From: Treponema sp.
GTDB taxonomy: Bacteria; Spirochaetota; Spirochaetia; Treponematales; Breznakiellaceae
Direction: 5' to 3'
Assembly (NCBI GenBank): GCA_031258305.1
Contig: JAIRNA010000097.1
Span: 1 to 63,226 of the forward strand
Length of the DNA: 63,226 bases
The notes under the pieces were generated by a model. The model did not search any database. It was not told where the DNA came from and saw only the letters and a list, made by a program, of their open reading frames with translations. The translations under genes were made by a program, and so were the position numbers. Shown piece by piece: positions 3,151 to 57,322 of the stretch. Position 1 is the first letter of the stretch. Each line of letters opens with the position of its first letter.

Positions 3151-3180
3151 ACCGTAATATTTTCTATATAAGGATTTGTT

Positions 3181-3871: not shown

Positions 3872-3908
3872 TTGACTATTAGAAGATGGTATGTTAGGGA
3901 GGTAAACT

Positions 3909-4160
3909 ATGGCTAGAAAAAGAGGCGGAAGTGGCGCAAAAAACGGGCGGGATTCTAATCCGCAGTATCTCGGTATAAAGGCATCGGGCGGTTCCACGGT
4001 AAAAGCGGGAACCATCATCGTAAGACAGCGAGGAACAAAGATTCACCCTGGAGAAAACGTGGGATTGGGTGGCGACTATACCCTCTTCGCCCTGATTGAC
4101 GGAGTCGTCTCCTTTAAAAATCGCCGTGGACGCAAATTTGCGGCGGTAATGGCACAATAG
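3909..4160 (+). CDS. rpmA: 50S ribosomal protein L27 (no N-terminal propeptide)
   Basis: [28 protein letters not shown]... is a mature-type L27 N-terminus. An in-frame TAA at 3903-3905 rules out an extension. Confidence 0.95.
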
Positions 4161-5368
<1,208 letters not shown>

Positions 5369-5378
5369 GCGATTTACT

Positions 5379-6647
5379 ATGAAACTAGCGATACTCGGTG
5401 GGAGTTTCAATCCCCCGCATATAGGACATCTCGCGCTGGCGTCCGCGGTAATTCCGCTCGGTTATGAGCGGGTCATTTTCGTGCCAGCGTTTGAGTCGCC
5501 GTTCAAACAGGGTGCGGTTGGTGCAAATCCGCGGGACAGGCTTGATATGCTCGCGGCATCCATCCCTACAGACACCCGGCTCACCGTGGATGACAGCGAA
5601 ATACGGCGCGAAGGCGTCTCCTATACTGCCGATACCCTCAATGACATCGCCCGCCGTTACTATCCTGATGGCAAATTGGGACTCATAATCGGCGAAGATC
5701 TCGCCCAAGACCTCCCTAAATGGCACAAATACGAAGAAATTCGCCAAAAAGCCGAAATTATCATCGCTCGTAGATTTATTCCTTCTCTTGACGAAAATAT
5801 TAAACTTGAGAAATATGAAGAGAATAATGGAACAAAGGATAAAATTTCGTATTCTTCTGCGACTAAATTTAACGTAGACAAGTTTCAGTACCCGCACAGA
5901 ATCCTCGAAAATGCAGTGATCCCTATCTCTTCCGCGATGATCAGGGAAAAAATTGCGAAAAACGAACCATGGAAGTACCTTGTGCCTCAAGGTGCGAGAG
6001 TCATCATTGAAGAACGAGGGCTTTATTTCCAGTTTCCGCCTCCCGGCTCTCAACTTCCAAGCTCTCTTATCTATCGTATGGAGGATGCGACTCGCTTTCT
6101 AGTAAGTCCTTCCCGTTTCCTGCACTCGCGTAACGTAGCTCTTCTTGCTGCGGACCTTTGCATCCGTTTCGGGCTTGATTCTCGCAGAGGCTACCTCGCG
6201 GGCATAGTTCACGACATCTGTAAATCGTTTTCCACTGAGGAATTGACAGACATCATCAAAAGAAACGGAGGAAAAATTTCAAAGATGGGAAAAAAGAAAC
6301 CGGCCCTTCTCCATGCGCCGGCCGGCGCTCTCTTCATACGGGAAAAATTCGATATTCAAGACGAAGATATTCTTGAGTCCGTACGCGTTCATACTATCGG
6401 CGCGAAACATATGGGACAACTCGCCAAAATCGTGTTCATCGCCGATAAAATAGAAGTAACCCGTCCCAGTGTTCGTCCTGTCATCCGCGAAATGTGCCAG
6501 CACGTACCGCTAGATATGTCTCTCGATGAATTGTTTTCTCTGATTTTGAATGAAACGGTTGATTTTATGCGGTCAAGAAATATGGATATTTCCCAAGAAA
6601 CACTAAGGCTCCTAGATGCAATGCAGAGAAAAACAGACTCCAATTAG
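5379..6647 (+). CDS. nadD: Nicotinate-nucleotide adenylyltransferase NadD fused to a YqeK-type HD phosphohydrolase
   Basis: N-terminal GGSFNPPHIGH (HxGH nucleotidyltransferase motif). The C-terminal half has LHSRNVA...IVHDICK (HD motif) as in YqeK. An extra ~60-aa insert lies in the NadD part. Confidence 0.85.
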   Translation: MKLAILGGSFNPPHIGHLALASAVIPLGYERVIFVPAFESPFKQGAVGANPRDRLDMLAASIPTDTRLTVDDSEIRREGVSYTADTLNDIARRYYPDGKLGLIIGEDLAQDLPKWHKYEEIRQKAEIIIARRFIPSLDENIKLEKYEENNGTKDKISYSSATKFNVDKFQYPHRILENAVIPISSAMIREKIAKNEPWKYLVPQGARVIIEERGLYFQFPPPGSQLPSSLIYRMEDATRFLVSPSRFLHSRNVALLAADLCIRFGLDSRRGYLAGIVHDICKSFSTEELTDIIKRNGGKISKMGKKKPALLHAPAGALFIREKFDIQDEDILESVRVHTIGAKHMGQLAKIVFIADKIEVTRPSVRPVIREMCQHVPLDMSLDELFSLILNETVDFMRSRNMDISQETLRLLDAMQRKTDSN

Positions 6648-6739
6648 GTGCGCCGATAGGACACATATGGTCAATCCGAACATCTATATTGTGTTTTACC
6701 CACTTGAATATTTAACTATTCTTGATTATCATTATAGTT

Positions 6740-7396
6740 ATGAAGAAAATTTGCTTGTTTTTATTAATTATTCCTGTCTTAGCGTCTGCTCAGGAAATCG
6801 TTACCGCGAATCGGTATATGGAAATGGTATCTGAACAATACAGCGGTATGCGCGATTATGAGGCGAAAATAGGCATACAGTCGGGATCAAGCGCGATGTC
6901 GGGAACGGTGAGTTACCTGGTTCCGTCTTTCTTGCGTATAGATTTTACGACGCCTGCGGAACAAGTCATCGTGTTTAATGGGGATCAACTCACTTTGTAT
7001 CTGCCCGAATATCGTGCGGTTCTGAATCAGGAGGTGACGTCTGGAGGCGCAGGATTAGCGACAGGCGGGGGACTTACCCTTATGCGGCGTAATTACGTGC
7101 CGTCTTACGTGACCGGTCCCGATCCTTCGCCGCTTGAGGGGTCAGGCGAATCGGTAGTGAAATTACGGCTATCGCGCAGGTCCGGCGCGGAGAGCTTTCG
7201 TGAAATTATCCTGAGCATAAATCCAAATACGAAGCTCATCAGACGTATGGAAGGCACGACTCTGAGCGGTTCCGTGATACGCTTTGATTTTACCAACATC
7301 AGGAGCAATATCGGTATTCCCGAACAGCGTTTCATCTACGACTCGCCCGGCTCGGCGAATATGTACAATAATTTTCTCTTTCGAGACACAGAATAG
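6740..7396 (+). CDS. LolA-like outer-membrane lipoprotein carrier/sorting protein
   Basis: Signal peptide MKKICLFLLIIPVLASAQE. GTVSYLVPSFLRIDFTTPAEQVIVFNGDQLTLYLPEY is typical of the LolA family. ATG 6740 is preferred over TTG 6722. Confidence 0.7.
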   Translation: MKKICLFLLIIPVLASAQEIVTANRYMEMVSEQYSGMRDYEAKIGIQSGSSAMSGTVSYLVPSFLRIDFTTPAEQVIVFNGDQLTLYLPEYRAVLNQEVTSGGAGLATGGGLTLMRRNYVPSYVTGPDPSPLEGSGESVVKLRLSRRSGAESFREIILSINPNTKLIRRMEGTTLSGSVIRFDFTNIRSNIGIPEQRFIYDSPGSANMYNNFLFRDTE

Positions 7397-7410
7397 GGAA
7401 GGGGCGTGAA

Positions 7411-8538
7411 TTGGAATCTTTAGGAAACAAACTGAAAACAACCCGCGAGAATAGGAACGAAACCTGCGATGAGGTGAGTTTTAAAATCAATGTGGCAAGT
7501 CGTTATCTCAAAGCTCTTGAAGCTGAGGATTTCTCGGTTTTCCCGGGCGAGGTTTACACGCTTGGGCTTATGAAGAATTACGGCGAATATTTAGGGCTTG
7601 ATCCTAAGGAATTGATTAAGCTCTACCGTGACAAAAAATTGCAGGAACAGCCTATGCCGCTTGAGCTTCTGAAACCGCAACGGCAGTTTCAGATTAAGCC
7701 TTTGATTAAGGTCCTTGGGGTTCTCGTCCTATTAGCCTTTATTGGGGGTGGATTTTACATCGTCACTCAAAATATACCTAAGTTTGAAAATTCGATGCCG
7801 AAGCTATCACGCAAGGCGAAGAACTGGATGGTTGACTCTTTACCTATGGAAAAACGCCTGTTTGTCAACGATTCCTTTGTTGTTCCGTATGAAGGTGCGG
7901 AGTACCGCCTGATTTTGGCATCAGTGGGAGATACGGTCACGGTGACTTCAGACGGCAGGGACGCCATAGCGCTTAGTTTGGGAGTTGAAAAATTTGTCGA
8001 TGTTGACAATGATGGTTTCAGCGACATAAAAATCACGGCATTGGATTTCGTGAAGAATAAACCATCAACCGGAGCGCGCCTGTTACTTGAATTCTCGGAT
8101 TCGGTGATCGCTAATTCTGAGAATGCCAATATAGCGCAAAACGATTCGCAGACCGTAGAGTTTGCACAGGAAGCAACCCCGTCTACCAAGGGGAATGAAA
8201 CGCAGGTCATCATCTTCTCTTCGCCGACCCCATATCCTTTTACGCTACAGGTAACCTTTCAAGACTACACTCTGTTCCGATGGGAGATTCTGGCTGAAAG
8301 AAACAGACAGGGACGCAATGAACAGTATTTCGAGCGGAATAAAGAATTGAGTATCCAAGCCCAGAATGGCGTCCGAATTGGCATATCAAACGCCGCGGCC
8401 GCAAAGATTCAGGCAATAGGCGGTGGAAGAGGAGTTCCACTCGAACTAGGTGCATCCGGCGAAGTCGTTGTCGCGGATATTCACTGGATAAAAAAAGAAG
8501 AAAACCGCTACCATCTCGTACTGGCGTTCTTGGAGTGA
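7411..8538 (+). CDS. RodZ-like cytoskeleton protein (HTH, one TM helix, C-terminal DUF4115-like domain)
   Basis: N-terminal HTH LGNKLKTTRENRNETCDEVSFKINVASRYLKALEAEDFSVFPGEVY, then TM helix VLGVLVLLAFIGGGFYIV. TTG start after GGGAAGGGG. Confidence 0.7.
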   Translation: MESLGNKLKTTRENRNETCDEVSFKINVASRYLKALEAEDFSVFPGEVYTLGLMKNYGEYLGLDPKELIKLYRDKKLQEQPMPLELLKPQRQFQIKPLIKVLGVLVLLAFIGGGFYIVTQNIPKFENSMPKLSRKAKNWMVDSLPMEKRLFVNDSFVVPYEGAEYRLILASVGDTVTVTSDGRDAIALSLGVEKFVDVDNDGFSDIKITALDFVKNKPSTGARLLLEFSDSVIANSENANIAQNDSQTVEFAQEATPSTKGNETQVIIFSSPTPYPFTLQVTFQDYTLFRWEILAERNRQGRNEQYFERNKELSIQAQNGVRIGISNAAAAKIQAIGGGRGVPLELGASGEVVVADIHWIKKEENRYHLVLAFLE

Positions 8539-8604
8539 ATAGGAATAGCTTTTTTGTTATCAAACATCGCTTATTGTAAGAATAAATTCACTGACTACTC
8601 CTAT
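8539..8604 (+). repeat. Intergenic hairpin element (instance L, rodZ-like|rimO)
   Basis: ATAGGAATAG 8539-8548 pairs with CTACTCCTAT 8595-8604 (9/10, the mismatch is a G-U equivalent). AT-rich core TTGTTATCAAACATCGCTTATTG. Confidence 0.4.
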
Positions 8605-8617: not shown

Positions 8618-9934
8618 ATGAATAAAACTTACTTCTTAGACCTCTTCGGGTGCGCGAAGAACCAGGTTGACGCGGAAACTCTTATGGCCTATCTAAATGA
8701 TGCTGGATGGGTCTGCGTATCCTCGCCCGCTGAGGCTGAAATTACGGTCATCAACTCGTGTGGATTTATCGAAACGGCAAAACGAGAATCCATCAACGCG
8801 GTTATTGAGCATAAGAGAAACGGCAAACGAGTCCTACTTGCCGGTTGTCTTGCAGAACGTTACGCTGACGAACTATTTGAATCGCTCTCGGAGGCCGATG
8901 TTGTTTTCGGTAACAAAGATCTGTCTAAGATCGTCTCCGCCGCAGATGCGGCTCTCCATAGCGTACGGACGCAACTCGTTCCCTTGTCGTCAGATACCAA
9001 TATTCGGTACAAAAGCCGCCCTCTCCTCTCCCCACCCGGCTCCGCGTACGTGAAAATCGCCGAAGGCTGTAGCAATCGTTGTTCCTTTTGTTCCATTCCC
9101 CTCATCCGCGGAGGACTTAAAAGCCGCCAAATCGAGGACGTTTTTGACGAGTGTCAGACACTCTTGGACAGAGGCGTACGGGAACTTTGTCTGGTTGGGC
9201 AGGACATCGCCGCATTCGGCGTAGATTATTCGGGAAAACAACTTTTGTCTGTGCTTTTAGAGTCGCTTGCGCGTCTGGACGGAGACTTTTGGGTGCGTCT
9301 GCTTTACCTGCATCCCGACCATTTCCCGCCCATTCTCGATTTTCTCAAGAGAAACGGCGGCGGGCGGTTCCTGCCCTATTTTGACATTCCTTTTCAACAT
9401 GCCTCAAAGTCTCTCTTGCAAAAGATGAACCGCAAAGGTTGCGAGGAGGATTATATGGCTCTGCTTGACCGTATACGGGACGCTCTCCCGGACGCGGTTA
9501 TCCGTTCCACATTTCTACTTGGGTTTCCGGGGGAAACAGATGTAGACGTAGAAATTCTGCTCGACTTTCAGGAAAAGGCGCGCCTTGACTGGGCGGGCTG
9601 TTTCACCTATTCTCGCGAGGAGAACACGCCTGCGGATGCTATGAAACCTCGCGTACCAAAACACGCGGCCGCGCGACGTAAAGTTCTTGTCGAAGAGAAG
9701 CAGACTGCAATAACGGAAAAACAGTTAGAACGCTTTGTGGGGCGAGAATTCTCCGTTTTAGTTGAAGAAAAAGTAGACGAAGGATTGTATCTAGGTAGAA
9801 TGTTTGCCCAAGCACCGGAAGTGGACGGGGCGGTCGTGGTTCACGCGGACGCAGCGCCCAGACTCGGAACTTTTACCCGTTGTAAAGTTACCGCCCGCGC
9901 AGGCTTTGATTTGACCGCTGAGAAGGTTAGGTAA
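8618..9934 (+). CDS. rimO: Ribosomal protein S12 methylthiotransferase RimO (radical SAM, MiaB family)
   Basis: LFGCAKNQVDAE N-terminal domain, CSNRCSFCSIP radical-SAM cluster and a C-terminal TRAM-like domain. Confidence 0.85.
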   Translation: MNKTYFLDLFGCAKNQVDAETLMAYLNDAGWVCVSSPAEAEITVINSCGFIETAKRESINAVIEHKRNGKRVLLAGCLAERYADELFESLSEADVVFGNKDLSKIVSAADAALHSVRTQLVPLSSDTNIRYKSRPLLSPPGSAYVKIAEGCSNRCSFCSIPLIRGGLKSRQIEDVFDECQTLLDRGVRELCLVGQDIAAFGVDYSGKQLLSVLLESLARLDGDFWVRLLYLHPDHFPPILDFLKRNGGGRFLPYFDIPFQHASKSLLQKMNRKGCEEDYMALLDRIRDALPDAVIRSTFLLGFPGETDVDVEILLDFQEKARLDWAGCFTYSREENTPADAMKPRVPKHAAARRKVLVEEKQTAITEKQLERFVGREFSVLVEEKVDEGLYLGRMFAQAPEVDGAVVVHADAAPRLGTFTRCKVTARAGFDLTAEKVR

Positions 9935-9943
9935 TAAATTATC

Positions 9944-9973
9944 CTCCCCCGTCTTGACAGACAGGGGAGTTTA
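9944..9973 (+). terminator. Candidate intrinsic terminator after rimO
   Basis: CTCCCC(C)GTCT 9944-9954, TGAC loop, AGAC(A)GGGGAG 9959-9969 (10 bp plus one mismatch), then TTTATTAT. Confidence 0.5.
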
Positions 9974-9989
9974 TTATACTTTAAAAACT

Positions 9990-11204
9990 ATGAAGCAATG
10001 CGCTTTCTTTGTATTGATATTTTTGATGTTTTCCCTTGCGTCTGTTTTTTCTCATGAACCGGCGCCCCCACCTTCCATACAGTCGCGTTCCGCGATTATC
10101 TTGGATGCGGAGACTGGCGCGGTGCTTTTCACGAAGAATGAGAATGAGAAGATTCCTCCCGCTTCTCTCGCCAAACTGATGACTATGCACATAGCCCTCT
10201 CCCAAGTCGATACGGGAAACGCCGCTCTTGACGAAATCGTTCCTCTCCCGCAGGAGACGTGGTGGGGAAATCAGCCTCCGCGATCAAGCCTTATGTTTTT
10301 GGCAGACGGTCAGCGGGTGACTCTGCGCGAACTGCTGTTGGGGCTCGCCATTTCTTCGGGCAATGATGCGGCCGTTGCCGTGTCTCTGCGGTTTGCTTCT
10401 TCGGTAGACGCCTTCGTGAAACTTATGAACGAAGAAGCAAACAGGATAGGGCTTGAGAACACCGTTTTCACGGAGCCGTCCGGTGTTTCGGAACACAACA
10501 TGACCACAGCCGCGGAATTCGCCGTTTTTTGTAGGTATTACCTAAAAGCCCACCCGATGAGTCTGATAGAATACCATTCGGTCGGCAAATTTGACTACCC
10601 CAAACCTAAAAATATGCCGGAACCTGTACGTTCCGATATGAAAACCGTTACTCAGTACAATCACAACTACTTGCTTGGGCGCGTTGAAGGAGTTGACGGC
10701 ATAAAAACAGGGTACATCGACGAGTCGGGTTACAACATTGCACTGACAGCGCGGCGAGATGACACACGTTTGATAGCAGTAGTTTTAGGCGCGCCTGCGG
10801 TTAAGAACGGTGCGGACATAAGAGATGAAGATGGACGGAAACTCCTCGAATGGGCTTTCTCCCATTTTCGGACAATCAGGCCGGATATTGGCGTGTTAGA
10901 GAATGTCCGCGTATGGAAGGGACGGAGGAAGTTTGCCGGACTGGCGCTCGGTGCGCCTGTGGAATGGACCGCTACTGCTGACCGAGGGCAGAGTCTCCAT
11001 TTTGAGATACAGCTCAATGAGCCGATTATTGCGCCGTTCTACGCGGGAGATGTTGCTGGAAGCCTCGTTTTTTCTGACAGTATAGGGGAGTTACGGACGA
11101 TTCCGCTCGTTTTCACGGAAAACGTCGAGCGCGCCGGTTTTTTTAAGCGACTTTGGGACTCAATATGTTTATTTTTTAAGATAAGACTAAAGAAAGTATC
11201 TTGA
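9990..11204 (+). CDS. D-alanyl-D-alanine carboxypeptidase (PBP5/6, S11 family)
   Basis: Active-site motifs SLAK (SxxK), SGND (SxN) and KTG. Signal peptide from MKQCAFFVLIFLMF. ATG 9990 is preferred because the hairpin lies upstream. Confidence 0.85.
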   Translation: MKQCAFFVLIFLMFSLASVFSHEPAPPPSIQSRSAIILDAETGAVLFTKNENEKIPPASLAKLMTMHIALSQVDTGNAALDEIVPLPQETWWGNQPPRSSLMFLADGQRVTLRELLLGLAISSGNDAAVAVSLRFASSVDAFVKLMNEEANRIGLENTVFTEPSGVSEHNMTTAAEFAVFCRYYLKAHPMSLIEYHSVGKFDYPKPKNMPEPVRSDMKTVTQYNHNYLLGRVEGVDGIKTGYIDESGYNIALTARRDDTRLIAVVLGAPAVKNGADIRDEDGRKLLEWAFSHFRTIRPDIGVLENVRVWKGRRKFAGLALGAPVEWTATADRGQSLHFEIQLNEPIIAPFYAGDVAGSLVFSDSIGELRTIPLVFTENVERAGFFKRLWDSICLFFKIRLKKVS

Positions 11205-13929: not shown

Positions 13930-14697
13930 ATGAACCTTTATCCTTTTTCGCTTAATTTTTCAGGGCGCCCAGCCGCGTTTTTCCCTTTTATGTTTAACGG
14001 GAAACCGATAAGGGACGTTTTCTGCTTCGTTTCAGCGCGGCAGTCCGGGGATATGGGCTTGCAAAGTGTGGAAAACAGGCGTCGATTTGCGGAAACCTTG
14101 TTTCCATCCGAAGTAAAAAATAGCGGCACTGATATAAAGCTCTACGCCTGTAGGCAGACCCATTCGCAAAACGTTGTTGTCGTAGAGGCTGACTCTCCGC
14201 TTGTTTTTGAGAACGCGGACGGACTAGTAATGTTTCAAGGGGCAGGTAAAATTCTTTCCGTTACGGTGGCGGACTGTCTACCGGTGTTTCTATTTGACAC
14301 AGACTCCGGTACTTTCGGCGTGGTTCATTCGGGGTGGAGCGGCACGGGCATTGTCTTGAATGCCCTACGGCTTATGAAGACGCGCCCTGAAGCTGCGGCT
14401 GTGGTTTTCGGTCCCTGTATCTGCGGACATTGTTACCATGTTGACGAAAAAAGACGGCGTATTTTTTCGGAAAAATTCGGAGGCGTGGGTGGAGAATACC
14501 CACTTGGAGCGGTAGTTTCAGGCGATTGCCTGGACTTAAAAGCGGCAAACGCCCGCCTTTTGACGCGAAACGGTGTAAAGAATTTAGCCTATTGTGAAGA
14601 CTGTACTTTCACGGACCAAAGACTCGGCTCTTTTCGTCGTGAAGGGGAACATTTTACACGTATGCTTGTCGGGGTGGCCGGTTTTTCTTCTCCTTAA
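13930..14697 (+). CDS. pgeF: Peptidoglycan editing factor PgeF / YfiH (DUF152, laccase-domain) family
   Basis: CRQTHSQNVVVV, TVADCLPVF, VVHSGWSG and SFRREG motifs. Confidence 0.8.
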   Translation: MNLYPFSLNFSGRPAAFFPFMFNGKPIRDVFCFVSARQSGDMGLQSVENRRRFAETLFPSEVKNSGTDIKLYACRQTHSQNVVVVEADSPLVFENADGLVMFQGAGKILSVTVADCLPVFLFDTDSGTFGVVHSGWSGTGIVLNALRLMKTRPEAAAVVFGPCICGHCYHVDEKRRRIFSEKFGGVGGEYPLGAVVSGDCLDLKAANARLLTRNGVKNLAYCEDCTFTDQRLGSFRREGEHFTRMLVGVAGFSSP

Positions 14698-22653: not shown

Positions 22654-23211
22654 ATGGCTACAGGCTGGTATGTTCTCCATGTTTACTCGGGTTTTGAGAA
22701 TAAAATAGAAAAGACTATTCACCTTATGCGTTCCACAGGTGAGCTTGATGCGAATGTTGTGAAAGACATTAAGGTGCCGAATATGTCTATCGTGGAGATA
22801 AAGAACGGGAAAAAACGTACGCAAACACGAAAGTTTTTGCCCGGTTATATTCTCGTTGAAATGGACCTTTCGGACGATGGATGGAAAGCGCCTTGTTCGA
22901 AAATTAGGCAGATAAATGGCGTGACCGCTTTCGTGGGAACTCCTCCAAATAAGAAACCCCAGCCTTTGTCCGCTGACGAGGCGCGGGCTATTCTCCAAAA
23001 AACAGGTGAAATCAAAGGTGAAAAACCGTCGCGTCCCTCGCGGTCATTCAATCCACATGAACAAGTAAAAATCATTGACGGACCATTTGAGTCCTTCATT
23101 GGCGTCATCGAGGAAGTCAACCCGGAAAAGAACAAGCTCAAAGTTATGATCGGCATTTTTGGTAGAAAAACACCTGTCGAGGTGGATTTTTCACAGGTAG
23201 AAAAGGTATAG
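22654..23211 (+). CDS. nusG: Transcription termination/antitermination factor NusG
   Basis: [21 protein letters not shown] domain and a C-terminal KOW ([18 protein letters not shown]). Confidence 0.95.
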
Positions 23212-23305
23212 TGGAGAGTTGGGGAGTAGGTTTTTGTTAGTAAACGAAGTTTGTTGATTTCAAGCAACGTTCAATAATGATGGACTCACTCTTATCCCAA
23301 TTCCC
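23212..23305 (+). repeat. Intergenic hairpin element (instance C, nusG|rplK)
   Basis: Purine arm TGGAGAGTTGGGGAGTAGG 23212-23230 and pyrimidine arm CTCACTCTTATCCCAATTCCC 23285-23305. The core is ~80% identical to instance E, including CAAGCAACGTTCA 23261-23273. Confidence 0.5.
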
Positions 23306-23349
23306 ACGCTCAAAATAGAGATGTAGGAGAAGTTTAACAAACTTTGCTC

Positions 23350-23385
23350 GTCTGGGCGGTAAGCTGAAAGGGCGGACCGCCAGAC
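23350..23385 (+). promoter_or_regulatory. Stem-loop in the rplK leader (candidate L1 autoregulatory site)
   Basis: GTCTGG(G)CGG 23350-23359 pairs with CCGCCAGAC 23377-23385, 20 nt upstream of the rplK ATG. The function is inferred only from its position. Confidence 0.3.
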
Positions 23386-23405
23386 ACCACTACAAAGGAG
23401 AAAAC

Positions 23406-23837
23406 ATGGCAAAGAAGAAAGTCGTTGCACAAGTCAAACTGCAATGTCCGGCGGGCAAGGCAACGCCTGCGCCGCCGGTTGGTCCGGCGCTTGGTCCTCA
23501 CGGAGTGAGCGCCCCTCAGTTTGTCCAGCAGTTCAACGACCGGACAAAGACGATGGAGCCGGGGCTGATTATCCCTGTGGTTATCACCATCTATGCGGAC
23601 AAGTCGTTCACCTTCATTCTGAAGACACCGCCCGCGTCTGTCTTAATCAAGAAGGCGGTGGGTATCGAACACGGTTCCAAGGAGCCGCACAAGGTCAAGG
23701 TGGGTAAACTTCTTAATGCAAAGCTTGAGGAGATTGCTAAATTGAAACTTCCGGACCTGACGGCAAATGACCTTGACGCGGCGATGAAAATCATTGCCGG
23801 CACAGCCCGCTCAATGGGCGTGGAGGTGGAGAAATGA
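23406..23837 (+). CDS. rplK: 50S ribosomal protein L11
   Basis: [34 protein letters not shown]. Confidence 0.97.
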
Positions 23838-24511
23838 AGCATGGTAAAAAATACCGCGAGGCTGTCAAAAAATACGACAACGCGGCAATATTCGACCTTT
23901 TACCCGCCTTCGACTTGGTAAAATCTTTAGCTTACGCGAAATTCGATGAAACCATTGATATTTCCATCAAGTTGAACCTCAAGAAAAGCCAGTCTGTGCG
24001 CGATACGGTGGTTTTGCCCAATCAGTTTAAGGCTGAAAAGCGCGTTTTGGTGTTTTGTAAGCCGGAAAGGGAAGCTGAAGCAAAAGAGGCGGGCGCAACT
24101 TTTATCGGCTCGGACGACCTCATCGCCAAGGTGAAAGATGGATGGCTTGACTTCGATGTGGCGGTCGCTACGCCGGATATGATGAAAGACGTGGGTAAAC
24201 TCGGCATGGTGCTGGGCCGTCGTGGGCTTATGCCTAACCCGAAGACCGGTACGGTCACCTTTGACCTTAAGGGCGCTTTGTCCGAACTCCGTAAAGGACG
24301 CACGGAATTCCGTGCCGATAAAACTGGCGTGGTGCATCTGGCAGTTGGTAAATTATCTATGGACAGCGCAAAACTCGCGGAAAATGCAAGAACCGTTGTA
24401 ACGGAAGTCAAACGCAAGAAGCCGACCGATGCAAAAGGCGATTTTGTCATCAGCATTTCGGTGGCATCTACTATGGGGCCGGGCGTCTGGGTCGCAGTGA
24501 AAGACGAATAG
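23834..24511 (+). CDS. rplA: 50S ribosomal protein L1
   Basis: [15 protein letters not shown]... with a 4-nt overlap with rplK. Confidence 0.97.
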
Positions 24512-24590
24512 GAGTTGGGTTGGTTTTGTTACAGAATATTTTGCTTAAAATCGGTGAGCTTCGACGGTTAATGAAACCTGTTCCCTATTC
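24506..24590 (+). repeat. Intergenic hairpin element (instance D, rplA|rplJ)
   Basis: GAATAGG 24506-24512 (includes the rplA stop) pairs with CCTATTC 24584-24590. The flanking AGTTGGG / CCTGTTCC pairing is imperfect with wobbles. Confidence 0.4.
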
Positions 24591-24611
24591 TTTCTATATA
24601 GAGGAGAAACA

Positions 24612-25151
24612 ATGGCAATTTTAGCGAAAAGAGAGCAAGAATACAAGGTTAAGGCAATAAACGAGTTAAAAGAGGCGTTTGAGTCCGCGCCTGACTTCAT
24701 CTTTACTGATTACCGTGGATTGACTGTGGAGCAAATTACGAATTTACGGCGGCAGTTACGGACAAAAGGCGCGGAATTTAAGGTTGTAAAGAACAACTTC
24801 GCCCGTATTGCTTTTGAGCGACTTTCTACGACGGATGTGTCGGCTTATTTACTTGGTCCCACGGCTGTGGCTATCGCACCGCGGGATTCAAACGAAGTGG
24901 CAAAGGTGCTGTTTGATTTCACGAAGTCAGCGCCTCGTCTCAAGGTAAAAGGCGGCTTGGTTGGTAAAACGGTTTACACGGACAAGCAAGTCGAGGCGTT
25001 TTCCAAACTCCCCGGCAAGCTACAGCTTGTTTCTATGCTTATGTCCTGTATAAACGGACCCGTCCGTAACCTTGCCGGTGCGTTGAATGACATCAATGCC
25101 CGTTTGGTCCGCACGGTCAAAGCAGTGGCTGATAAAAAAGCGGATGGTTGA
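24612..25151 (+). CDS. rplJ: 50S ribosomal protein L10
   Basis: Position between rplA and rplL. FTDYRGLTVEQITNLRRQLR motif. Confidence 0.95.
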   Translation: MAILAKREQEYKVKAINELKEAFESAPDFIFTDYRGLTVEQITNLRRQLRTKGAEFKVVKNNFARIAFERLSTTDVSAYLLGPTAVAIAPRDSNEVAKVLFDFTKSAPRLKVKGGLVGKTVYTDKQVEAFSKLPGKLQLVSMLMSCINGPVRNLAGALNDINARLVRTVKAVADKKADG

Positions 25152-25157
25152 AAAAAT

Positions 25158-25258
25158 AAGGAGTAGCGAGTAAGGAGTAAGGTTGATGTTAGCAAACAAA
25201 GCTTGTTTTTCAAGCAACGTTCAGCAACAAAAAGTCTATTCCCTATTCCCTATTCCCC
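25158..25258 (+). repeat. Intergenic hairpin element (instance E, rplJ|rplL) with tandem heptamers
   Basis: The 5' arm AAGGAGTAGCGAGTAAGGAGTAAGG 25158-25182 has two AAGGAGTA units. The 3' arm has three tandem CTATTCC units at 25236-25256. The core carries CAAGCAACGTTCA at 25211-25223. Confidence 0.5.
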
Positions 25259-25348
25259 AATAATCCCTTGTCAGACTTCAAGTAACTGTCCTCTGTCAAG
25301 GGAACAAGCCCTCGTATGGGGGAAAATCTTATTTTTAAGGAGAAGATA

Positions 25349-25732
25349 ATGGCAGTTAGTATTGATGAGATTTTGGAGACAATTTCTTCTATGACCGTTC
25401 TGGAAGTTTCGGAACTGGTTAAGAAAATGGAGGAAAAGTTCGGTGTTTCTGCGGCGGCCCCGGTGGCGGTCGCCGCAGTAGCTGGTCCCGCGGTGGCCGC
25501 GGAGCCTGTTGAGGAAAAAACGGAATTCAATGTTATTCTTAAGGCGTTTGAGACGGACAAAAAGATAGCCGTCATCAAAGAGGTCCGTGCCGTTACAGGT
25601 TTGGGGCTGAAAGAAGCCAAAGACTTGGTGGAAGGCGCGCCGAAACCCCTCAAGGAAGGCATATCCAAAGAAGATGCCGAGAAAATCAAGAAATCTGTTA
25701 CCGAAGCCGGTGGAACGGTGGAAATCCAGTAG
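25349..25732 (+). CDS. rplL: 50S ribosomal protein L7/L12
   Basis: [39 protein letters not shown] lies 6 nt before ATG 25349. The track start at 25316 is upstream of the SD. Confidence 0.95.
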
Positions 25733-25839
25733 TTGGGAGTTGGGTTTTAGAGAGTGGAAGCAAGGTTATTTGTTAATAAACAAGGCTTATTTTAAACAAT
25801 GTTTTATAACAAAAAAACAACTCCCAACTCCCTAAAACC
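25732..25839 (+). repeat. Intergenic hairpin element (instance F, rplL|rpoB)
   Basis: GGAGTTGGG (5' arm, ~25735-25743) can pair with CCCAACTCC 25823-25831. GGTTTTAG 25743-25750 can pair with CTAAAACC 25832-25839. The two pairings are not nested, so they are alternatives or a pseudoknot. Confidence 0.45.
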
Positions 25840-25889
25840 TTATTCCCTTTCTTTTAAAAATCACAAACAAACACAGTAGGGAGGGAACC

Positions 25890-28800
25890 GTGGAGAGAAG
25901 AGATAAAGAAAGAGTTCTTATCGGAAAAGATATTCAGAATGGAGTAGACCCGAAAGATGTGATGGAGATGCCGGACTTGATTGACATTCAGCTTTGCTCT
26001 TACGAGCGATTCCTGCAAAGGGAGCGACTGAGACGGGGTGAAAAACCGGAGAATCAGGGGCTTGAAGAAGCCTTCCGTGCAACATTTCCCATCGTGAGCC
26101 AAAATGAAGAGACGGTTCTTGAGTATGAATACTACAGTCTTGATGAAGAAGGAGTCAAATTTAACGAGCAGGAATGTCATCAAAAAGGACTCACATACGC
26201 TATTCCTCTTAAGGCGCGTATAAACCTCATCTTTCAGCAGACAGGTGAAATTCGTCAGAAAAACATCTACATGGGCGACATCCCCATTATGACGGAACGG
26301 GGAACATTCATCATCAACGGTGCTGAACGTGTCGTTGTGAGTCAAATTCACCGCTCACCAGGCGTCATCTTTAACCACGAAAAAGGTGTATTTTCTTCAC
26401 GTATCATCCCTTATCGCGGGTCGTGGCTTGAATTCGAGGTTGACCAGAAAAAGGAGATGATTTACGCCAAAATAGACCGTAAGAAACGTATACTTGGTAC
26501 CATGTTTCTCCGCGCTCTGGGCTATGGCTGCCGCGAGGAGATTATCAAGAGTTTGTATAAGACCGTTTCTTTTGAAGTAAAGGACGATGAGGAAACCAGA
26601 GTGAAAATCTCCGGCAAATCGCTTGCCGCGCCGATTTGGATTGATGCGGATGAAAACGATAAAGCCGCAGTTGACGGCAGGAAAAAACTCTACAAAGCCG
26701 GTGAAAAGATGCATCCTCATAATGTTGATGATCTGTTGGCGCATAATATTCAAGTGATAGAAGTAATAGACTTTGAGGCAAAAGATTCCCTCAATTCTCC
26801 TATGATTCTGAATTGTTTTGAACGAGAAGAAATCAAGTATCCGGAAGACGACCCGACAAAAGACGAACCCACAAAGGAAACAGCTATCAGCGAGGTTTAT
26901 AAAGTGCTGATGCCCGGAGATTCTATTACCGTTGAAGCTGCGGAAAAAGACCTTATGACCCTATTCTTCAAGATATGGCGCTACGATCTTGGCAAGGTAG
27001 GGCGTTACAAGCTTAACAAGAAATTCAACCTCGAAATACCGATGGATACTTTCACATTGACCAAAGCTGACATCATCGCCACAATGAAATTTCTCATTAA
27101 AGTCTACATCGGCGAGGAAAACATAGATGATATTGACCATATGGGCAACCGGCGCGTGCGCTCTGTAGGTGAACTCATGACTGTCGAGATGAAAACCGCC
27201 TTTACACGCATAGAGAGAATCGCTAAAGAGCGTATGAATCTCAAGGAAATAGAAACCATCAAGCCCCAAGACCTTATCTCCATCAAGCCGATTGTGGCCG
27301 CAATCAAAGAATTTTTCGGTTCCAGTCAACTGTCCCAGTTTATGGACCAGGTGAACCCGCTCGCGGAACTCACCCACAAACGCAGGTTAAACGCCTTGGG
27401 ACCGGGCGGTTTGAGCAGGGACCGAGCCGGCTTTGAAGTGCGCGACGTGCATTATACGCATTATGGGAGAATGTGTCCGATAGAGACTCCAGAAGGACCG
27501 AACATCGGATTGATTGTTTCGCTGGCAAACTACACTCGCGTCAACGAGTACGGTTTTCTGGAGTCGCCCTACCGCCGCGTGGTAAACGGTGTTGCCGCCA
27601 AAGATATCGACTATCTTTCCGCAATGGAGGAAGACCGCTATTTCATAGCGCAAGCTTCGGCAAAACTCAATGCAGACGGTTCTTTCGCCGACCATCAGGT
27701 TTCATGCCGAAAGCAAGGTGATTACACGAGCCAACCACCCAAGGAAATAGATTATATGGACGTGTCCCCGCGGCAAATCATCTCGGTGTCCGCATCCCTC
27801 ATCCCTTTTCTGGAACACGACGATGCCAACCGTGCGCTCATGGGTTCCAACATGCAACGCCAGGCGGTGCCGCTGGTGTTTCCTGAAGCGCCTCGTGTGG
27901 GTACCGGTATGGAGGGCAAATGCGCCTATGATTCAGGTGTGCTTATCAAGGCTCGGCGAGACGGTGTGGTCATCCGCGTGACATGTAGTGAAATTATCAT
28001 CCAGCCAGACGATCGACAAACTAAGTCGCCGGAAACGGACAAACGCGGATTTGATGTCTACAAATTGCTAAAATACCAGCGGACCAATCAAGACACATGC
28101 TACAACCAGCGCCCCATTGTGAAACTTGGTGCCCGTGTGAGCGCCGGGCAGGTGATTGCGGACGGTCCCGCAACCCAAAATGGAGAACTTGCCTTAGGGC
28201 GTAACTTGCTCGTGGGCTTTATGCCGTGGAACGGGTACAATTACGAAGACTCAATCCTCATTTCACAGAGAGTTGTAAGAGAGGATATGTTTACATCTGT
28301 CCATATAAAGGAATTCCCGATTGAGATTAGAGAGACGAAACTCGGTCCCGAAAGAATAACCCGCGACATACCAAATATGAGTGAAAAGAGCCTGGACAGT
28401 CTTGATGCTGAAGGCGTCATCATCGTCGGCGCAAAGGTGTGGGCAGGCGACATTTTGGTCGGTAAGGTTACGCCCAAGAGCGAAACCGAAACCACGCCGG
28501 AATTCAAGCTGTTAAACTCAATTTTCGGCGAAAAGGCGAAAGATGTACGAGACACATCGTTGCGTGTACCACACGGTATCGACGGTACGGTGATTGAGAT
28601 TCAGCGGTTGAGTAGAGCCAACGGAGACGACTTGAACCCAGGTGTCAATGAAGTCGTCAAGGTGTTGATTGCCACCAAGCGCAAGCTCCGCGAAGGCGAC
28701 AAAATGGCTGGCCGCCACGGCAATAAAGGCGTCGTCGCCCGTGTTTTGCCGGAAGAAGATATGCCCTATATGGATGATGGTACTCCGCTTGACCTGTGCC

Positions 28801-29456
28801 TCACCCCGCTTGGTGTGCCGTCCCGCATGAACATCGGTCAGCTTTTGGAAACAGAGTTAAGCTGGGCGGGTATCAAACTGAATGAATGGTATGCAACGCC
28901 GGTGTTCCAGTCTCCCACAACCGATCAGATAGCCGAAAAGCTGAAAGAAGCGGGCGTGTGCAATGAGGATGAGCATCTTCGTACCAAGACCTATCTGCGC
29001 GATGGGCGTACTGGCGAGCGATTTGTCAACCCGATTTTCTGTGGGGTCATCTATTTCCTGAAACTGCACCACCTCGTGGATGACAAAATGCACGCGCGTT
29101 CCACCGGTCCTTACTCGCTGGTGACGCAGCAACCCCTTGGTGGAAAAGCGCAATTCGGAGGGCAGAGGCTCGGTGAAATGGAGGTATGGGCGCTTGAGGC
29201 TTACGGCGCGGCAAATACCTTGCAGGAACTACTTACCATAAAGTCGGACGATATGACCGGGCGTTCTAAGGTTTACGAAGCCATCGTTAAAGGTGAACCA
29301 TCCACGACCGCAGGTGTTCCTGAATCGTTCAACGTGCTGGTGCAAGAGCTTCGTGGACTTGCCATGGATTTGACCATATTTGACGACCACGACAAACAAA
29401 TTGCTCTCACGGAACGCGACGAAGAGATGATTGAAAAAGCGGGAAGCAATTTCTAG
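25890..29456 (+). CDS. rpoB: DNA-directed RNA polymerase subunit beta
   Basis: 1188 aa with conserved blocks ([46 protein letters not shown]). GTG start after AGGGAGGG. Confidence 0.98.
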
Positions 29457-29460
29457 ATTT

Positions 29461-29566
29461 AGTGGGTTGGGGATTGCGGTTGGGAGCGTTATTATAAATA
29501 TTGCTTGAAAGAAACAAGCTCTGTTTTTTAACAAAAAACTACTCCTATTCCTCTTTCCCCACTCCT
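29461..29566 (+). repeat. Intergenic hairpin element (instance G, rpoB|rpoC)
   Basis: Purine arm AGTGGGTTGGGGATTGCGGTTGGGAGCG 29461-29488 and pyrimidine arm CTACTCCTATTCCTCTTTCCCCACTCC 29540-29566. Apical stem GCTTG-AAAGAAA-CAAGC. Confidence 0.45.
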
Positions 29567-29623
29567 AAGAGACTACTCAAAGCAAGTGATTCATCGTTAT
29601 AAAACAAACAACGAGGAGAAAAA

Positions 29624-32600
29624 ATGAGAGACATACAAGATTTCAATTGGATACGGATACAGTTGGCTTCGCCTGAAAAGATTCGGGCGTGGTCTTATGG
29701 GGAAGTAAAAAAACCTGAAACCATCAACTACCGGACCTTGCGCCCGGAAAAGGATGGGCTCTTCTGTGAGCGAATATTCGGCACCACGAAGGAGTGGGAG
29801 TGTTATTGCGGAAAGTTCAAATCCATCCGTTATAAGGGCGTAATTTGTGACCGGTGCGGTGTGGAAGTAACTCATTTCAAAGTGCGACGCGAGCGCATGG
29901 GACATATCGAGCTTGCCGCGCCCGTTTCGCATATATGGTATTATCGATCCGTACCGAGCAGAATGGGACTCCTCCTCGATATGACGATGTCCAATCTCCG
30001 ATCCGTGCTTTACTACGAAAAGTATGTGGTGATTGAGCCGGGTGACACGGATCTCAAGAAGATGCAGATTCTCACAGAGGAAGAATACGCGGAGGCACAA
30101 GAGCGTTACAGCGGCGGTTTTACCGCAGGTATGGGGGCAGAAGCTGTTAAAACCTTGCTCGAAAATCTAGACCTTAACGCGATGGCCGCAGAACTCCGTG
30201 AAAAAATGATAGAAAAAGGCATAAAATCCGACAAACGCCTGTTGAGACGTATCGAGATTGTGGAGAATTTCCGCGCGTCTGACAACAAGCCGGAGTGGAT
30301 GATTATGGATGTGATTCCTGTGATTCCGCCTGATCTCCGCCCCATGGTGCAACTCGAAGGCGGTAGGTTCGCCACCAGTGACCTGAATGATCTTTATCGG
30401 CGTGTCATCAACCGCAACAATCGGCTCCACAGGCTCCAAGCCATGAGCGCGCCGGAAATCATTATCCGCAATGAAAAACGGATGCTTCAAGAGGCGGTTG
30501 ATGCGCTTTTTGACAATTCCAAGAAAAAGCGTGTGGTAAAAGGCGCAAGCAACCGCCCGCTCAAATCCATTTCTGATATGCTCAAGGGCAAACAGGGACG
30601 TTTCCGTCAGAACCTGCTTGGTAAGCGCGTTGACTATTCCGGGCGCTCGGTCATCACGGTCGGTCCGAATCTGAAAATGTGGCAGTGCGGATTGCCGGTT
30701 AAGATGGCGCTGGAACTTTTCAAACCCTTCATAATGAAGCGTCTCGTTGACAAAGGCGTTGTCTACAACATAAAGAAGGCGAAACTGCTCGTGGAGCAGG
30801 AAACGCCGGAAGTTTTTGCAGTTCTGGACGATGTGGTGAGAGAACATCCTGTTCTGTTGAACCGCGCTCCGACCCTGCACCGTTTGGGTATTCAGGCGTT
30901 TGAACCAGTACTTGTGGAAGGTAAAGCTATCCGTCTGAATCCGCTTGTGTGCCACGCCTTCAACGCGGACTTTGATGGGGACCAGATGGCGATTCACGTA
31001 CCGCTTACCCAAGCCGCGCAAATGGAGTGTTGGACGCTTATGCTTTCTGTTCGCAACCTGCTCGACCCGGCAAATGGTAAGACCATCGTATATCCTTCGC
31101 AGGATATGGTATTGGGATGCAACTTCCTCACCCGTCCCAAGCCAAAATCTGATGACAAGGACAAGCAGGCAAAAGGGCAGGGGCGCTATTATTCCAGCTA
31201 TGAAGAAATGCTGATGGCGATTGACGCGAAGTCGCTCGACTGGGAGGCATTGATTTTTACTCATCCCACCAAATTTCCTGTATGGGAAAAAGCGGGTAAA
31301 GAAGCGATGAACAAGAAAGGTGAGGCGATTTCTAAAGATGATTACATCGAGACGACCGCCGGACGACTCGCATTCAACGATGAAATGCCGTCGGAGATTC
31401 CTTTCATCAACTATGAATTGAAAGATAAAGAGTTACGCGCTCTCATTGAGAAAATATTCGAGACCAAAGGTTCGTGGGTAACCGTGCAAATGGTTGACGC
31501 AATCAAAGATACTGGTTATAAATACGCTACGCTTTTCGGCGCGACTATAGGCATTGACGATATCGTCGTACCGAAAGAAAAACCCGATATGCTCGACAAG
31601 GCGAACATGGAAGTCGAAGCTATACAGAAACAGTACGAACAAGGCGTAATTACCAGTCAGGAACGCTACGACCGCGTGATTGACGTTTGGAACAAGTGTA
31701 ACGAAGACTTAACAGCTATCGTGATGAAGACTCTGGAGGCGGACAAGGATGGGTTTAACTCGATTCATATGATGGCGAACTCTGGAGCGCGTGGTAGCAA
31801 GACGCAGATCCGCCAGCTCGCTGGTATGCGAGGGCTTTTATCCAAGCCGAATCAAGAAATCATCGAATTGCCCGTGCGTGCTAACTTCAAAGAAGGGTTG
31901 TCGGTCATTGAGTTTTTTATTTCCACAAATGGCGCACGCAAAGGCTTAACCGATACGGCGCTGAAAACGTCCGAAGCTGGGTACCTGACCCGCCGTCTCG
32001 TTGACATTGCCCAAGACGTGGTAATAAACCAAGAGGATTGCGGCACCATCAACGGCATTGCCTACACTGCTATTAAGGACGGTGAAGAAGTCGTCGAATC
32101 CCTACACGATCGCATCGTAGGACGTTATACATCCGAGCGGATCAAGCACCCAATCACCGGCGAAATCATTGTTGACATAAATGATGAAATCACCGAAGAA
32201 CTCACGAAAAAGATTGACGAAGCCGGTGTGGAGTCGGTGTCCATCAGGACGGTTTTGACCTGTGAAGCCCAGCATGGGGTTTGTCAGAAATGTTATGGCA
32301 GAAACCTCGCCACGAACCGGCACGTTGACATCGGCGAAGCGGTCGGCATCATAGCGGCCCAGTCCATCGGTCAGCCCGGCACCCAGCTCACAATGCGGAC
32401 ATTTCACATCGGCGGCGCGGCGTCTACAAAAGGCGAAGACAATCGTATCTATCTCAAGTATCCAGTCTACATCAAGGATATTTCTGGTGTTCATGTGGAG
32501 ATTAAGGATGGTCATTGGCTTTTCACCCGTAAAGGACAGATGGTTGTCAATAAGGTTATGGGTGAGTTCAAGCTGGAAGAAGGTGACGAAGTCCTTATCG

Positions 32601-34000: not shown

Positions 34001-34074
34001 GCGGAGCGGAAAGAGGGTGTTTACTGAAATTATGAAACTTTGTTCGCTAACAAAAATTTTATTCCTACTTTCTT
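34001..34074 (+). repeat. Weak member of the intergenic hairpin family (instance H, after rpoC)
   Basis: GCGGAGCGGAAAGAGGGTG 34001-34019 and TTATTCCTACTTTCTTC ~34058-34074 flank a TTGTTCGCTAACAAAAA-type core. Complementarity is poor. Confidence 0.25.
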
Positions 34075-37068: not shown

Positions 37069-37133
37069 AGAAGAGGGATAGGAATCGTTCTTAGAAAGTT
37101 CTTCTATAAATTTCCTCCCCTATCCTACTCTTT
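37069..37133 (+). repeat. Intergenic hairpin element (instance I, flhB|flhA)
   Basis: AGAAGAGGGATAGGAA 37069-37084 and TTTCCTCCCCTATCCTACTCTTT 37111-37133. GGATAGG pairs with CCTATCC and AGAG with CTCT. There is no SD before the flhA ATG. Confidence 0.45.
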
Positions 37134-54464: not shown

Positions 54465-54550
54465 GGAGCGGGGTGAAAGTTTATTGGTGCAATATTTCTT
54501 GAAATTATAAATTATCAAGTTCTGAACAACAAACCTATTCCCCTCCTCCC
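54465..54550 (-). repeat. Intergenic hairpin element (instance J, infB|sbcC)
   Basis: Plus-strand GGAGCGGGGTG 54465-54475 and CCTATTCCCCTCCTCCC 54534-54550 flank an AT-rich core. Confidence 0.4.
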
Positions 54551-57258: not shown

Positions 57259-57322
57259 GGGAATAGAGAATGGAGAACGTGGTATGAAAGTTTAATAATG
57301 TACTACCACCGTTCTCTACTCC
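57259..57322 (-). repeat. Intergenic hairpin element (instance K, nusA|infB)
   Basis: Plus-strand GGAGAACGTGGTA 57272-57284 pairs with TACCAC(C)GTTCTC 57304-57316 (12 bp plus one bulge). A second pyrimidine/purine block allows an alternative GGAGTAGAG/CTCTATTCC pairing. Confidence 0.55.

Follow-up and report, generated by a model that had tools for sequence, protein, structure and literature searches.

The stretch of DNA considered here is the 63,226-nt contig JAIRNA010000097.1 of a Treponema sp. (GenBank assembly GCA_031258305.1), analysed over its full length and referred to below as the window. It has a G+C content of ~47% and a coding strand skewed towards G over C, and it carries the gene orders L27, obg, nadD-like, lolA, an HTH_25 gene and a miaB-like gene; nusG, rplK, rplA, rplJ, rplL, rpoB and rpoC (the rif cluster); flhB and flhA; and, on the minus strand, nusA, infB and an sbcC-like gene. 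Here we describe palindromic elements ~65-110 nt long that are inserted directly 3' of stop codons inside these conserved operons, and consider what they are and why they have been kept.

All twelve stretches singled out in a preliminary description of this DNA are present where it placed them, five of them in the nusG-rpoC cluster (Table 1), and the layout it ascribed to them is seen in every one: a nearly C-free, G/A-rich 5' arm, an AT-rich middle and a nearly G-free, C/T-rich 3' arm. The 5' arm begins at or near the upstream stop codon, as had been noticed, with an offset of -23 to +10 nt across the twelve and of exactly 0 nt in six. Every element occupies a spacer between co-directional genes, and all lie within housekeeping operons. 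This purine-first, pyrimidine-last layout is identical on both strands of such palindromes and therefore carries no strand information. A hidden Markov model (HMM) built from all twelve copies matched nothing further in the window that could be counted as a thirteenth.

Table 1. Palindromic elements of the window. E, E-value of the copy against an HMM trained on the other copies; z, folding score of the sense strand relative to 200 dinucleotide shuffles, unless otherwise stated.
Site	Coordinates	Strand	Placement and remarks	Standing	E (leave-one-out)	z
rpmA(L27)-obg spacer	4161..4265	+	begins 0 nt past TAG stop, ends 6 nt before obg GTG start	layout only	no match	-5.7
obg-nadD spacer	5266..5368	+	last ~7 obg codons (5266-5288) form the purine arm	core-bearing	6e-12	-2.4
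HTH_25 gene - miaB-like gene spacer	8539..8604	+	begins 0 nt past TGA stop	weak short member	0.15	-1.0
nusG-rplK spacer	23212..23311	+	begins 0 nt past stop; core reversed relative to 29461	core-bearing	6e-14	-3.2 to -4.1
rplA-rplJ spacer	24506..24590	+	rplA stop codon inside 5' arm	marginal	0.009	-0.7
rplJ-rplL spacer	25158..25258	+		core-bearing	1.5e-13	-6.3
rplL-rpoB spacer	25732..25842	+		core-bearing	8.6e-11	-2.3 sense, -7.5 antisense
rpoB-rpoC spacer	29461..29566	+	reference orientation	core-bearing	1e-10	-3.8
3' of rpoC	34001..34074	+	core half recognisable, stable hairpin absent	decayed/truncated copy	3e-5	+0.1
flhB-flhA spacer	37069..37133	+	begins 0 nt past stop, ends 13 nt before flhA start	layout only, short hairpin	not significant	-1.1
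downstream of infB	54465..54550	-	begins 10 nt past infB stop	marginal	0.0085	-2.8
nusA-infB spacer	57259..57322	-	begins 0 nt past nusA stop, ends 19 nt before infB start	layout only, short hairpin	no match	-4.1

The distance from the end of the 3' arm to the next start codon is 6-24 nt in seven of the twelve elements, and in five of these seven cases the gene that follows lacks a Shine-Dalgarno word: none occurs in the 20 nt upstream of the starts at 4272 (obg), 5379 (nadD-like), 8618 (miaB-like), 34099 (an open reading frame, ORF) and 37147 (flhA). Downstream of the rif-cluster elements the spacer is longer and has a strong GGAG, a word found at about -10 of all genes in that cluster, and parts of these spacers are conserved leader-like segments.

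The claim that the twelve make up one family, assessed with leave-one-out HMMs over the window copies, holds for part of them. Six are recovered at E<1e-4 (5266, 23212, 25158, 25732, 29461 and 34001) and two are marginal at E~0.01 (24506 and 54465), but four (4161, 8539, 37069 and 57259) share the layout only. A repeat finder matches the cores of separate copies on both strands; 23223-23267, for instance, matches the reverse complement of 29501-29545 at 82% over 45 nt, and the reverse complement of the short element 8539 is 77% similar to 25786-25824 over 39 nt. Written in the orientation of element 29461, the core consensus is roughly TTTTGTTAy-wGAACrTTGCTTGAAA-(0-4 nt)-AACAAGCTTy-GTTTrCTAACAAAAA, and the AT-rich region between the arms can be outlined as TTTTGTTA..TTGCTTGAAA..AACAAGCTT..GTTTrCTAACAAAA. 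This core is a nested quasi-palindrome in its own right.

Tandem arrays with a 7-nt period are frequent in the arms, and every period-7 array reported by Tandem Repeats Finder (TRF) in the window and in the more distant locus L148 (see below) falls in an element arm. The arms of element 25158 consist of such arrays (TAAGGAG x3.7 and CTATTCC x3.1), and element 25732, with arms GTTGGGAGTTGGGTTTTAG / CTAAAACC..CAACTCCCAAC, includes a CAACTCC x2.1 array. The marginal element 24506 has the arms GAATAGGAG / CCCTATTC.

For comparison between species, the nusG-rpoC locus was fetched from 10 other genomes by way of their L7/L12 proteins. Six are close relatives (L001-L004, L146 and L147; L7/L12 89-94% identical) and form, with the window, what we call the clade. 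The others (L005, L006, L007 and L148), together with L066 and L067 from a metagenome scan, serve as outgroups (L7/L12 75-85% identical); the RplL scan was swamped by generic L7/L12 patterns, and its best matches, L066 and L067 at 75-76%, were of use as outgroups only. The closest L7/L12 proteins are labelled "MAG: Treponema sp." (MAG, metagenome-assembled genome) or "Spirochaetaceae bacterium", with Hollandina sp. SP2 and Breznakiellaceae bacterium SP9 further off. By Obg, the closest cultured relatives are Leadbettera azotonutricia and Breznakiella homolactica (72% each), which are termite-gut treponemes. The window thus belongs to an uncultured, Treponema-like spirochaete of the Breznakiellaceae type.

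At the five rif-region sites of the six relatives, nhmmer recovers 27 of the 30 expected copies, all in the orientation found in the window. Among them are HMM-matched, equally oriented orthologues of element 23212 in L001-L004, L146 and L147. The three sites without a match have lost the core and kept the arms in spacer alignments, as seen in the rplJ-rplL spacers of L001 and L003. The copy that follows rpoC is partial in L002, L147 and L003 and absent from L001, L146 and L004, whose downstream gene differs. No copy of the family was found by nhmmer in the outgroup loci L005-L007, L148, L066 and L067.

Short spacers in relatives had been named as the sign by which an insertion would be recognised, and this is what orthologous spacers show. 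Between rplA and rplJ the spacer measures 79-110 nt in the clade and 1-16 nt in the six outgroups; between rpoB and rpoC it measures 156-175 nt in the clade, 11-13 nt in four outgroups, ~33 nt in L066 and 78 nt in L005, where it holds an unrelated hairpin. At least the rplA-rplJ and rpoB-rpoC spacers therefore gained their element in the ancestor of the clade, and the elements are, judged from these spacers, a lineage-specific addition. Core identity is 0.76 between orthologues, 0.66 between paralogues within a genome and 0.65 between paralogues across genomes; the excess of the first value over the others shows vertical inheritance without homogenisation. The distribution as a whole suggests that the family would have spread into co-directional spacers before the species of the clade diverged, and would since have descended vertically.

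Copies outside the rif region were also found in relatives. The locus L150 keeps the L27-obg and obg-nadD elements, the former as a hairpin with arms like those of element 4161 and a shortened core, the latter as an nhmmer match at 4.6e-9, and additional copies occupy its flagellin-flaG and fliD spacers. L017 has three copies in consecutive spacers of one co-directional gene run, and L027 has two between small ORFs. These extra copies, too, are in spacers between co-directional genes. A strict core pattern searched against a collection of 185,579 species gave 58 matches, of which ~53 are chance occurrences in AT-rich genomes and five lie in three Treponema MAG species.

Some outgroups have palindromes of their own in the same places. 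In L148, which is richer in G+C, hairpins at 1530-1660, 3350-3485 and 4011-4125 occupy three of the same spacers; their arms, GGGAATA/GGGAGTA arrays set against CCCTACTCCC-type runs, are of the same kind as in the window, and their G+C-rich cores are unrelated. TRF describes these arms as ATAGGGA x5.9, AGGGAGT x3.6, CCCCACT x3.4 and CCACCGT x3.6, and several of the 5' arms fit the canonical motif of a G-quadruplex. In L005, unrelated palindromes fill the same rif-cluster spacers (7999-8164, 9852-10000 and 14121-14198): nusG is followed by two occurrences of GGGACACGATTTATCGTGTCC, rplJ by a hairpin whose arms are CACGAAC repeats, and rpoB by a GGTTTCGACAGGCTC hairpin.

The pairing between arms that had been proposed is borne out for the elements as a group. 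The 12 elements have a mean z of -2.8, whereas 16 other co-directional spacers average -0.4 (Mann-Whitney p=6e-4). Among orthologous copies, 25 of 35 reach z <= -2 despite the turnover of their arms; the orthologues of element 24506 range from z -1.8 to -5.3. Such folding could reflect selection for pairing or templated correction within quasi-palindromes. The sense strand has a lower minimum free energy (MFE) than the antisense strand in 24 of the 35 orthologues, and the MFE structures contain 168 G.U pairs in the sense strand and 87 in the antisense strand. These figures are no more than suggestive of a constraint that acts on the sense RNA.

These observations bear first on the objection that there is no element at all, and that the purine and pyrimidine runs are Shine-Dalgarno sequences combined with low-complexity bias. 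The 5' arms do hold GGAG words resembling the local Shine-Dalgarno sequence (AAGGAGAA), and four of the twelve copies lack sequence support and fold weakly. Against such an explanation stand the significant similarity of cores at different sites, folding far better than that of other spacers, the presence of the real Shine-Dalgarno sequences downstream of the elements, and outgroup orthologous spacers of 1-16 nt, to which 80-110 nt have been added. We regard it as extremely improbable, and are highly confident that the elements constitute a real, lineage-specific family of palindromic repeats.

The rates at which their parts have evolved are unequal. In deep pairs of the clade, four-fold degenerate sites of rplK, rplA, rplJ, rplL, rpoB and rpoC are 49-63% identical, close to saturation. 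Element cores are 71-87% identical in 19 of 20 deep pairs and 67% in the remaining one, with few gaps. Arms are only 52-71% identical between orthologues and contain many indels, so that the part conserved between species is the AT-rich core and not the arms. Core identity above that of four-fold sites indicates that the cores are constrained and have been under purifying selection.

The same comparisons can also be read as those of selfish palindromic repeats that are merely tolerated. Such repeats would have spread once and survived just after stop codons, where they do no harm; the hairpin would be a by-product of the inverted repeats needed for transposition, with selection acting only against copies that disturb genes. 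Arms that diverge about as fast as four-fold sites and accumulate many indels agree with this account, as do the decayed copy after rpoC, the absence of an orientation bias, weak covariation, and the deletion of cores, without visible consequence, from rplJ-rplL in L001 and L003 and from rplA-rplJ in L001 and L146. The unrelated palindromes in the same spacers of L005 suggest that these are safe havens for repeats, and same-kind arms around unrelated cores in L148 recall MITE (miniature inverted-repeat transposable element) subfamilies with common terminal repeats. Yet core identities of 0.71-0.87 in nearly all deep pairs, compared with 0.49-0.63 at four-fold sites of highly expressed genes, are not expected of neutral relics. 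Five sites are occupied in all seven genomes despite synonymous divergence that is nearly saturated, most orthologues fold well below their shuffles, and there is neither a consistent target-site duplication nor a transposase in the examined loci. We therefore think it somewhat unlikely that the copies are tolerated passengers only.

We instead favour, at a probability of roughly 0.5, the view that copies have been retained because of a cis-acting role at the level of RNA. Since they are located inside operons, the copies would be transcribed as part of polycistronic mRNA. The RNA is predicted to fold as a long imperfect hairpin of 25-45 pairs that spans the spacer, with its 5' base at the upstream stop codon and its 3' base just before the downstream leader or start. 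Our first choice of function would be a double-stranded processing site of the RNase III kind that also acts as a stabiliser, and so separates the fates or levels of neighbouring cistrons. As a second choice, the fold may loop the insertion out and so hold the upstream stop near the downstream start, which might apply where a start without its own Shine-Dalgarno sequence lies 6-24 nt past the stem. Precedents exist in other bacteria: RNase III cuts the hairpin formed by the inverted repeats of Correia elements, and ERIC insertions at the 3' ends of genes alter transcript levels through an RNase E site (PMC10969869). By analogy with these, a cis-acting role in mRNA seems the likelier function. 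Any single molecular mechanism we would put forward with much less confidence than the RNA-level role as a whole.

A number of results weigh against this reading. Transcription, folding and processing of the elements are steps that we infer, co-transcription from gene order. The conserved part is the apex and not the stem, which a model in which any hairpin will do does not predict. The advantage over shuffled controls belongs to the group and not to each copy, as elements 8539, 24506, 34001 and 37069 fold no better than their shuffles. The preliminary description held that the arms often pair through G-U pairs, which is an overstatement: the long hairpins of the window contain ~32 G.U and ~30 A.C oppositions. 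Over all copies, palindrome alignments with neutral scoring contain 1027 Watson-Crick, 147 G.U, 100 A.C and 113 transversion oppositions, a modest excess of G.U over A.C (147:100). Across both pairing tallies the G.U excess is 1.5-1.9 fold, which is not decisive because the G>C skew of the coding strand could alone produce it. Neither was there an excess of transitions in the arms, as would accompany neutral drift through G.U pairs (transition/transversion ratio 1.8, compared with 3.4 at four-fold sites), although that comparison is probably confounded by misalignment.

The apparent covariation of the apical stems, pointed out earlier, fares similarly. The named core structure of 18 pairs is 80% paired over 22 copies, compared with 32-50% when the partners are slid, but the signal is weak, its measures being reached by 18-35 of 500 shuffles. 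RNAalifold run on orthologues gave weak consensus structures (-6.0 and -3.8 kcal/mol) with a covariation term near 0, a result we attribute to indels that make the arms unalignable, and on the core alone it returned no consensus structure. Eight copies have a recognisable core, which runs forward relative to the mRNA in four and reverse in the other four, so that an asymmetric conserved core is read as two different RNAs; occurrence in both orientations suits a DNA-level or purely structural role at least as well.

A role of the first kind would make the elements sites for nucleoid or topology proteins, or cruciforms, in heavily transcribed operons, in the manner of the BIME/REP clusters of Escherichia coli. 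REP/BIME elements bind gyrase and IHF. The references of PMC3184786 include work on gyrase cleavage at BIME-2. Conservation of a sequence-specific, dyad-symmetric, AT-rich core (TTTTGTTA...TAACAAAA) that is independent of orientation, and the concentration of copies in highly expressed operons, would be consistent with binding to DNA. Such a role leaves the position of the 5' end at the stop codon unexplained, and also the placement in co-directional spacers only, which is a weak point given that the window has only about three spacers of other kinds; nor would it lead one to expect a folding bias towards the sense strand. Neither a candidate binding protein nor a known motif came to light, and we judge a DNA-level role to be improbable.

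Ordinary transcription signals between cistrons, whether intrinsic terminators, attenuators or internal promoters, are more improbable still. In one orientation a T run comes after the apical hairpin GCTTG..CAAGC, as at 29503-29519 (+). The T run is antisense in reversed copies (for example, 25215-25201 on the minus strand) and the stem has 5 pairs only. Terminator-like sites number 16, compared with 17.4 in shuffles, and promoter-like sites 18, compared with 16.9, and several copies lie between genes that need to be co-expressed, such as rpoB-rpoC and rplA-rplJ. An intrinsic terminator or attenuator was accordingly rejected, the sole match in the core being this orientation-dependent stem of 5 pairs, and a promoter was rejected as well.

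Within the RNA-level reading that we prefer, the parts of the element could be viewed as a domesticated, clade-specific intercistronic module, with a constrained apex for an RNase or RNA-binding protein, a fast-turnover stem of purine and pyrimidine heptamers, and a base that ribosomes open, linking one cistron to the next. With the 5' base placed on the stop codon of the upstream gene, the stem would be opened by a ribosome terminating there, and translation of one cistron might thereby be linked to how the next is processed, stabilised or re-initiated. Downstream genes that lack a Shine-Dalgarno sequence and start 6-24 nt past the 3' arm fit such an arrangement. We offer this detailed version tentatively, as a possibility that we rather doubt. 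If true, it would mean that a layer of operon regulation has been added to rplKAJL-rpoBC, nusA-infB, L27-obg and tsf-frr in one Treponema lineage.

As for what the family is, the preliminary description did not recognise it as a described element, and we likewise found no match in Rfam and no description in the literature searched. Rfam 15, including its termite/Treponema motifs and ribosomal protein leaders, returned three tRNAs only when run on the whole window at gathering scores, and a permissive scan of 23100-29700 added two chance-level matches (E 0.5-2). Several properties are those of MITEs: imperfect inverted-repeat arms surround a short non-coding core; several homologous copies are dispersed in the window, with more in other operons of relatives; and copies are present in some genomes and absent from others, with no recent polymorphism within the clade. 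The flanks show no consistent direct repeat; TAG/TA words are found at certain junctions, such as rplA-rplJ of the window and of L001, and not in other orthologues. No parent insertion sequence or transposase was seen in the window or in the fetched loci, and no RAYT gene in the window. Spirochaetes genomes, including those of Treponema, are rich in MITEs according to a census (PMC11602168). Among the suggestions made earlier, a domesticated MITE family resembling ERIC, BOX or Correia elements fits best, the elements being dispersed imperfect palindromes inside operons and lineage-specific, and the best fit overall is to old, lineage-restricted imperfect palindromic repeats of the MITE, ERIC or REP type.

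The family nevertheless differs from the named repeats in its arms of purine and pyrimidine heptamer arrays, its conserved centre and its abutment on stop codons. ERIC/IRU sequences of Enterobacteriaceae and Vibrio are likewise imperfect palindromes, of ~100-127 bp, that are intergenic (within operons or after them), transcribed, found in either orientation and able to form long RNA hairpins. In the present family, unlike ERIC/IRU, the arms are 7-nt arrays segregated into purine and pyrimidine, the centre is better conserved than the ends and the elements abut the upstream stop; no sequence relationship is to be expected in a different phylum. Correia elements (CREE/NEMIS) of Neisseria are hairpin repeats of ~100-150 bp that are co-transcribed with their neighbours, and they are the model for the role we favour. 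Their 26-bp terminal repeats are well conserved, and they carry an IHF site and promoter elements as well as a TA target duplication. In the present family variation is greatest at the ends, promoters are not enriched, there is no consistent duplication, and reading of the core sequences revealed no match to the IHF consensus; we do not assign the family to the Correia elements.

REP/BIME/REPIN sequences, which are mobilised by RAYT, are extragenic palindromes often found after stop codons inside operons, and GTAG words occur in many arms here. REP palindromes form REPINs, in which two inverted REPs around a spacer make a ~100-nt hairpin, and REPIN systems are mostly vertical and long-persisting (PMC3116915, PMC3337134, bioRxiv 10.1101/2022.05.22.493013). 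REPs are conserved ~25-mers in tens to hundreds of near-identical copies, whereas the present elements have variable heptamer arrays and paralogues that are ~65% identical. With an arm identity of 0.52-0.71 with indels and a paralogue core identity of 0.65, the family does not belong to them. The pneumococcal BOX, RUP and SPRITE elements are small interspersed repeats, some of them modular with a tandem sub-unit, that are transcribed with their neighbours (PMC3049150). The present family resembles them in being small, interspersed and built of modular or tandem sub-units; they differ in their boxA-boxB(n)-boxC architecture, belong to another phylum and show no segregation of purine and pyrimidine arms.

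Integron attC sites share with the elements a position directly after ORFs in co-directional arrays and an imperfectly palindromic form of 57-141 nt. They have conserved ends and a variable centre, whereas here the centre is conserved and the neighbours are housekeeping operons, not cassettes. Read by eye, the elements lack RYYYAAC and GTTRRRY and contain GTTAGCA, GTTAGTA and GTTACAG; their GTT words are followed by AGC, AGT, ACA or AAT and not by RRR, and their neighbours are the rif-region, nusA-infB and L27-obg genes. We therefore rejected an attC identity.

Other candidate properties were considered and discarded. A hairpin that brings a Shine-Dalgarno sequence next to the start has a geometry that fits rpmA-obg only, and not the other cases without such a sequence. 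G-quadruplexes in 5' arms are a minority feature (L148, and rplL-rpoB in L003 and L004) and not a general one. TAG stop codons are not enriched at elements (6 of 12, compared with 19 of 42), and the 25-codon ORF that can be read in element 25158 has a frameshift in L002. Elements do not in general supply the stop codon or C-terminus of the upstream protein, as obg alone reads into an arm. The C-termini of NusG, L11, L10, L12, RpoB and RpoC are the same as in outgroups, and that of L1 differs by one residue. The Obg tail encoded by the purine arm reads ..WGVGNWA*; close relatives have other W/G-rich ends (EGRKVEGWE, EWRRVEDWG), and cultured relatives end differently.

The rplA-rplJ and rpoB-rpoC junctions are among the tightest and most conserved in bacteria, and palindromes of 80-170 nt entered five consecutive rif-region junctions of one lineage and were kept through extensive speciation. 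If the elements act on mRNA, a mobile repeat would have been recruited to tune the balance of ribosomal proteins and RNA polymerase subunits; if they are merely tolerated, they are a measure of the structured insertion that such junctions can take up. The family is in either case a useful marker for this uncultured clade, and a warning for annotation, in which long spacers may look "empty" and C-terminal tails, as in Obg, may be encoded by a repeat.

Two segments downstream of elements attracted our attention in their own right. The 3' half of the rplJ-rplL spacer (window 25265-25348; CCCTTGTCAGACTTCA..GTAACTGTCCTCTGTCAAGGG..GCCC..GGGG..AAGGAG) is conserved in all fetched treponeme loci, including outgroups without the repeat, and looks like a structured leader before rplL, without a match in Rfam. 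The 3' half of the nusG-rplK spacer (window 23312-23405; TGTAGGAGAAGTTTAACAAACTT..CTGGGCGG..CCGCCAG..ACTACAAAGGAG) is conserved throughout the clade and resembles a leader of the L11/L1 operon, again with no Rfam match, even permissively.

Intergenic DNA in the relatives also contains runs of 10-13 G or C (L017 at ~2479 and ~7407, L003 at ~4192, and L001 at 3963-3992, where a G run and a C run form an inverted pair). A 7.9-kb Logan contig from an independent sequencing run (L149, SRR14710907) is 99.93% identical to window 2533-8160, which indicates that the same strain is present in a public read set; a search of other assemblies with the window's L27 led to this strain only. At the left end of the window, positions 1-3200 make up an island of low G+C (31-40%, compared with ~47% elsewhere) with ORFs at 46-2121 and 2333-2854. 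The second of these is bracketed by similar segments of ~100 nt (about 2122-2240 and 2880-2990) and by a 22-nt inverted repeat (2235-2256 / 2865-2886), and the island may be an inserted cassette.

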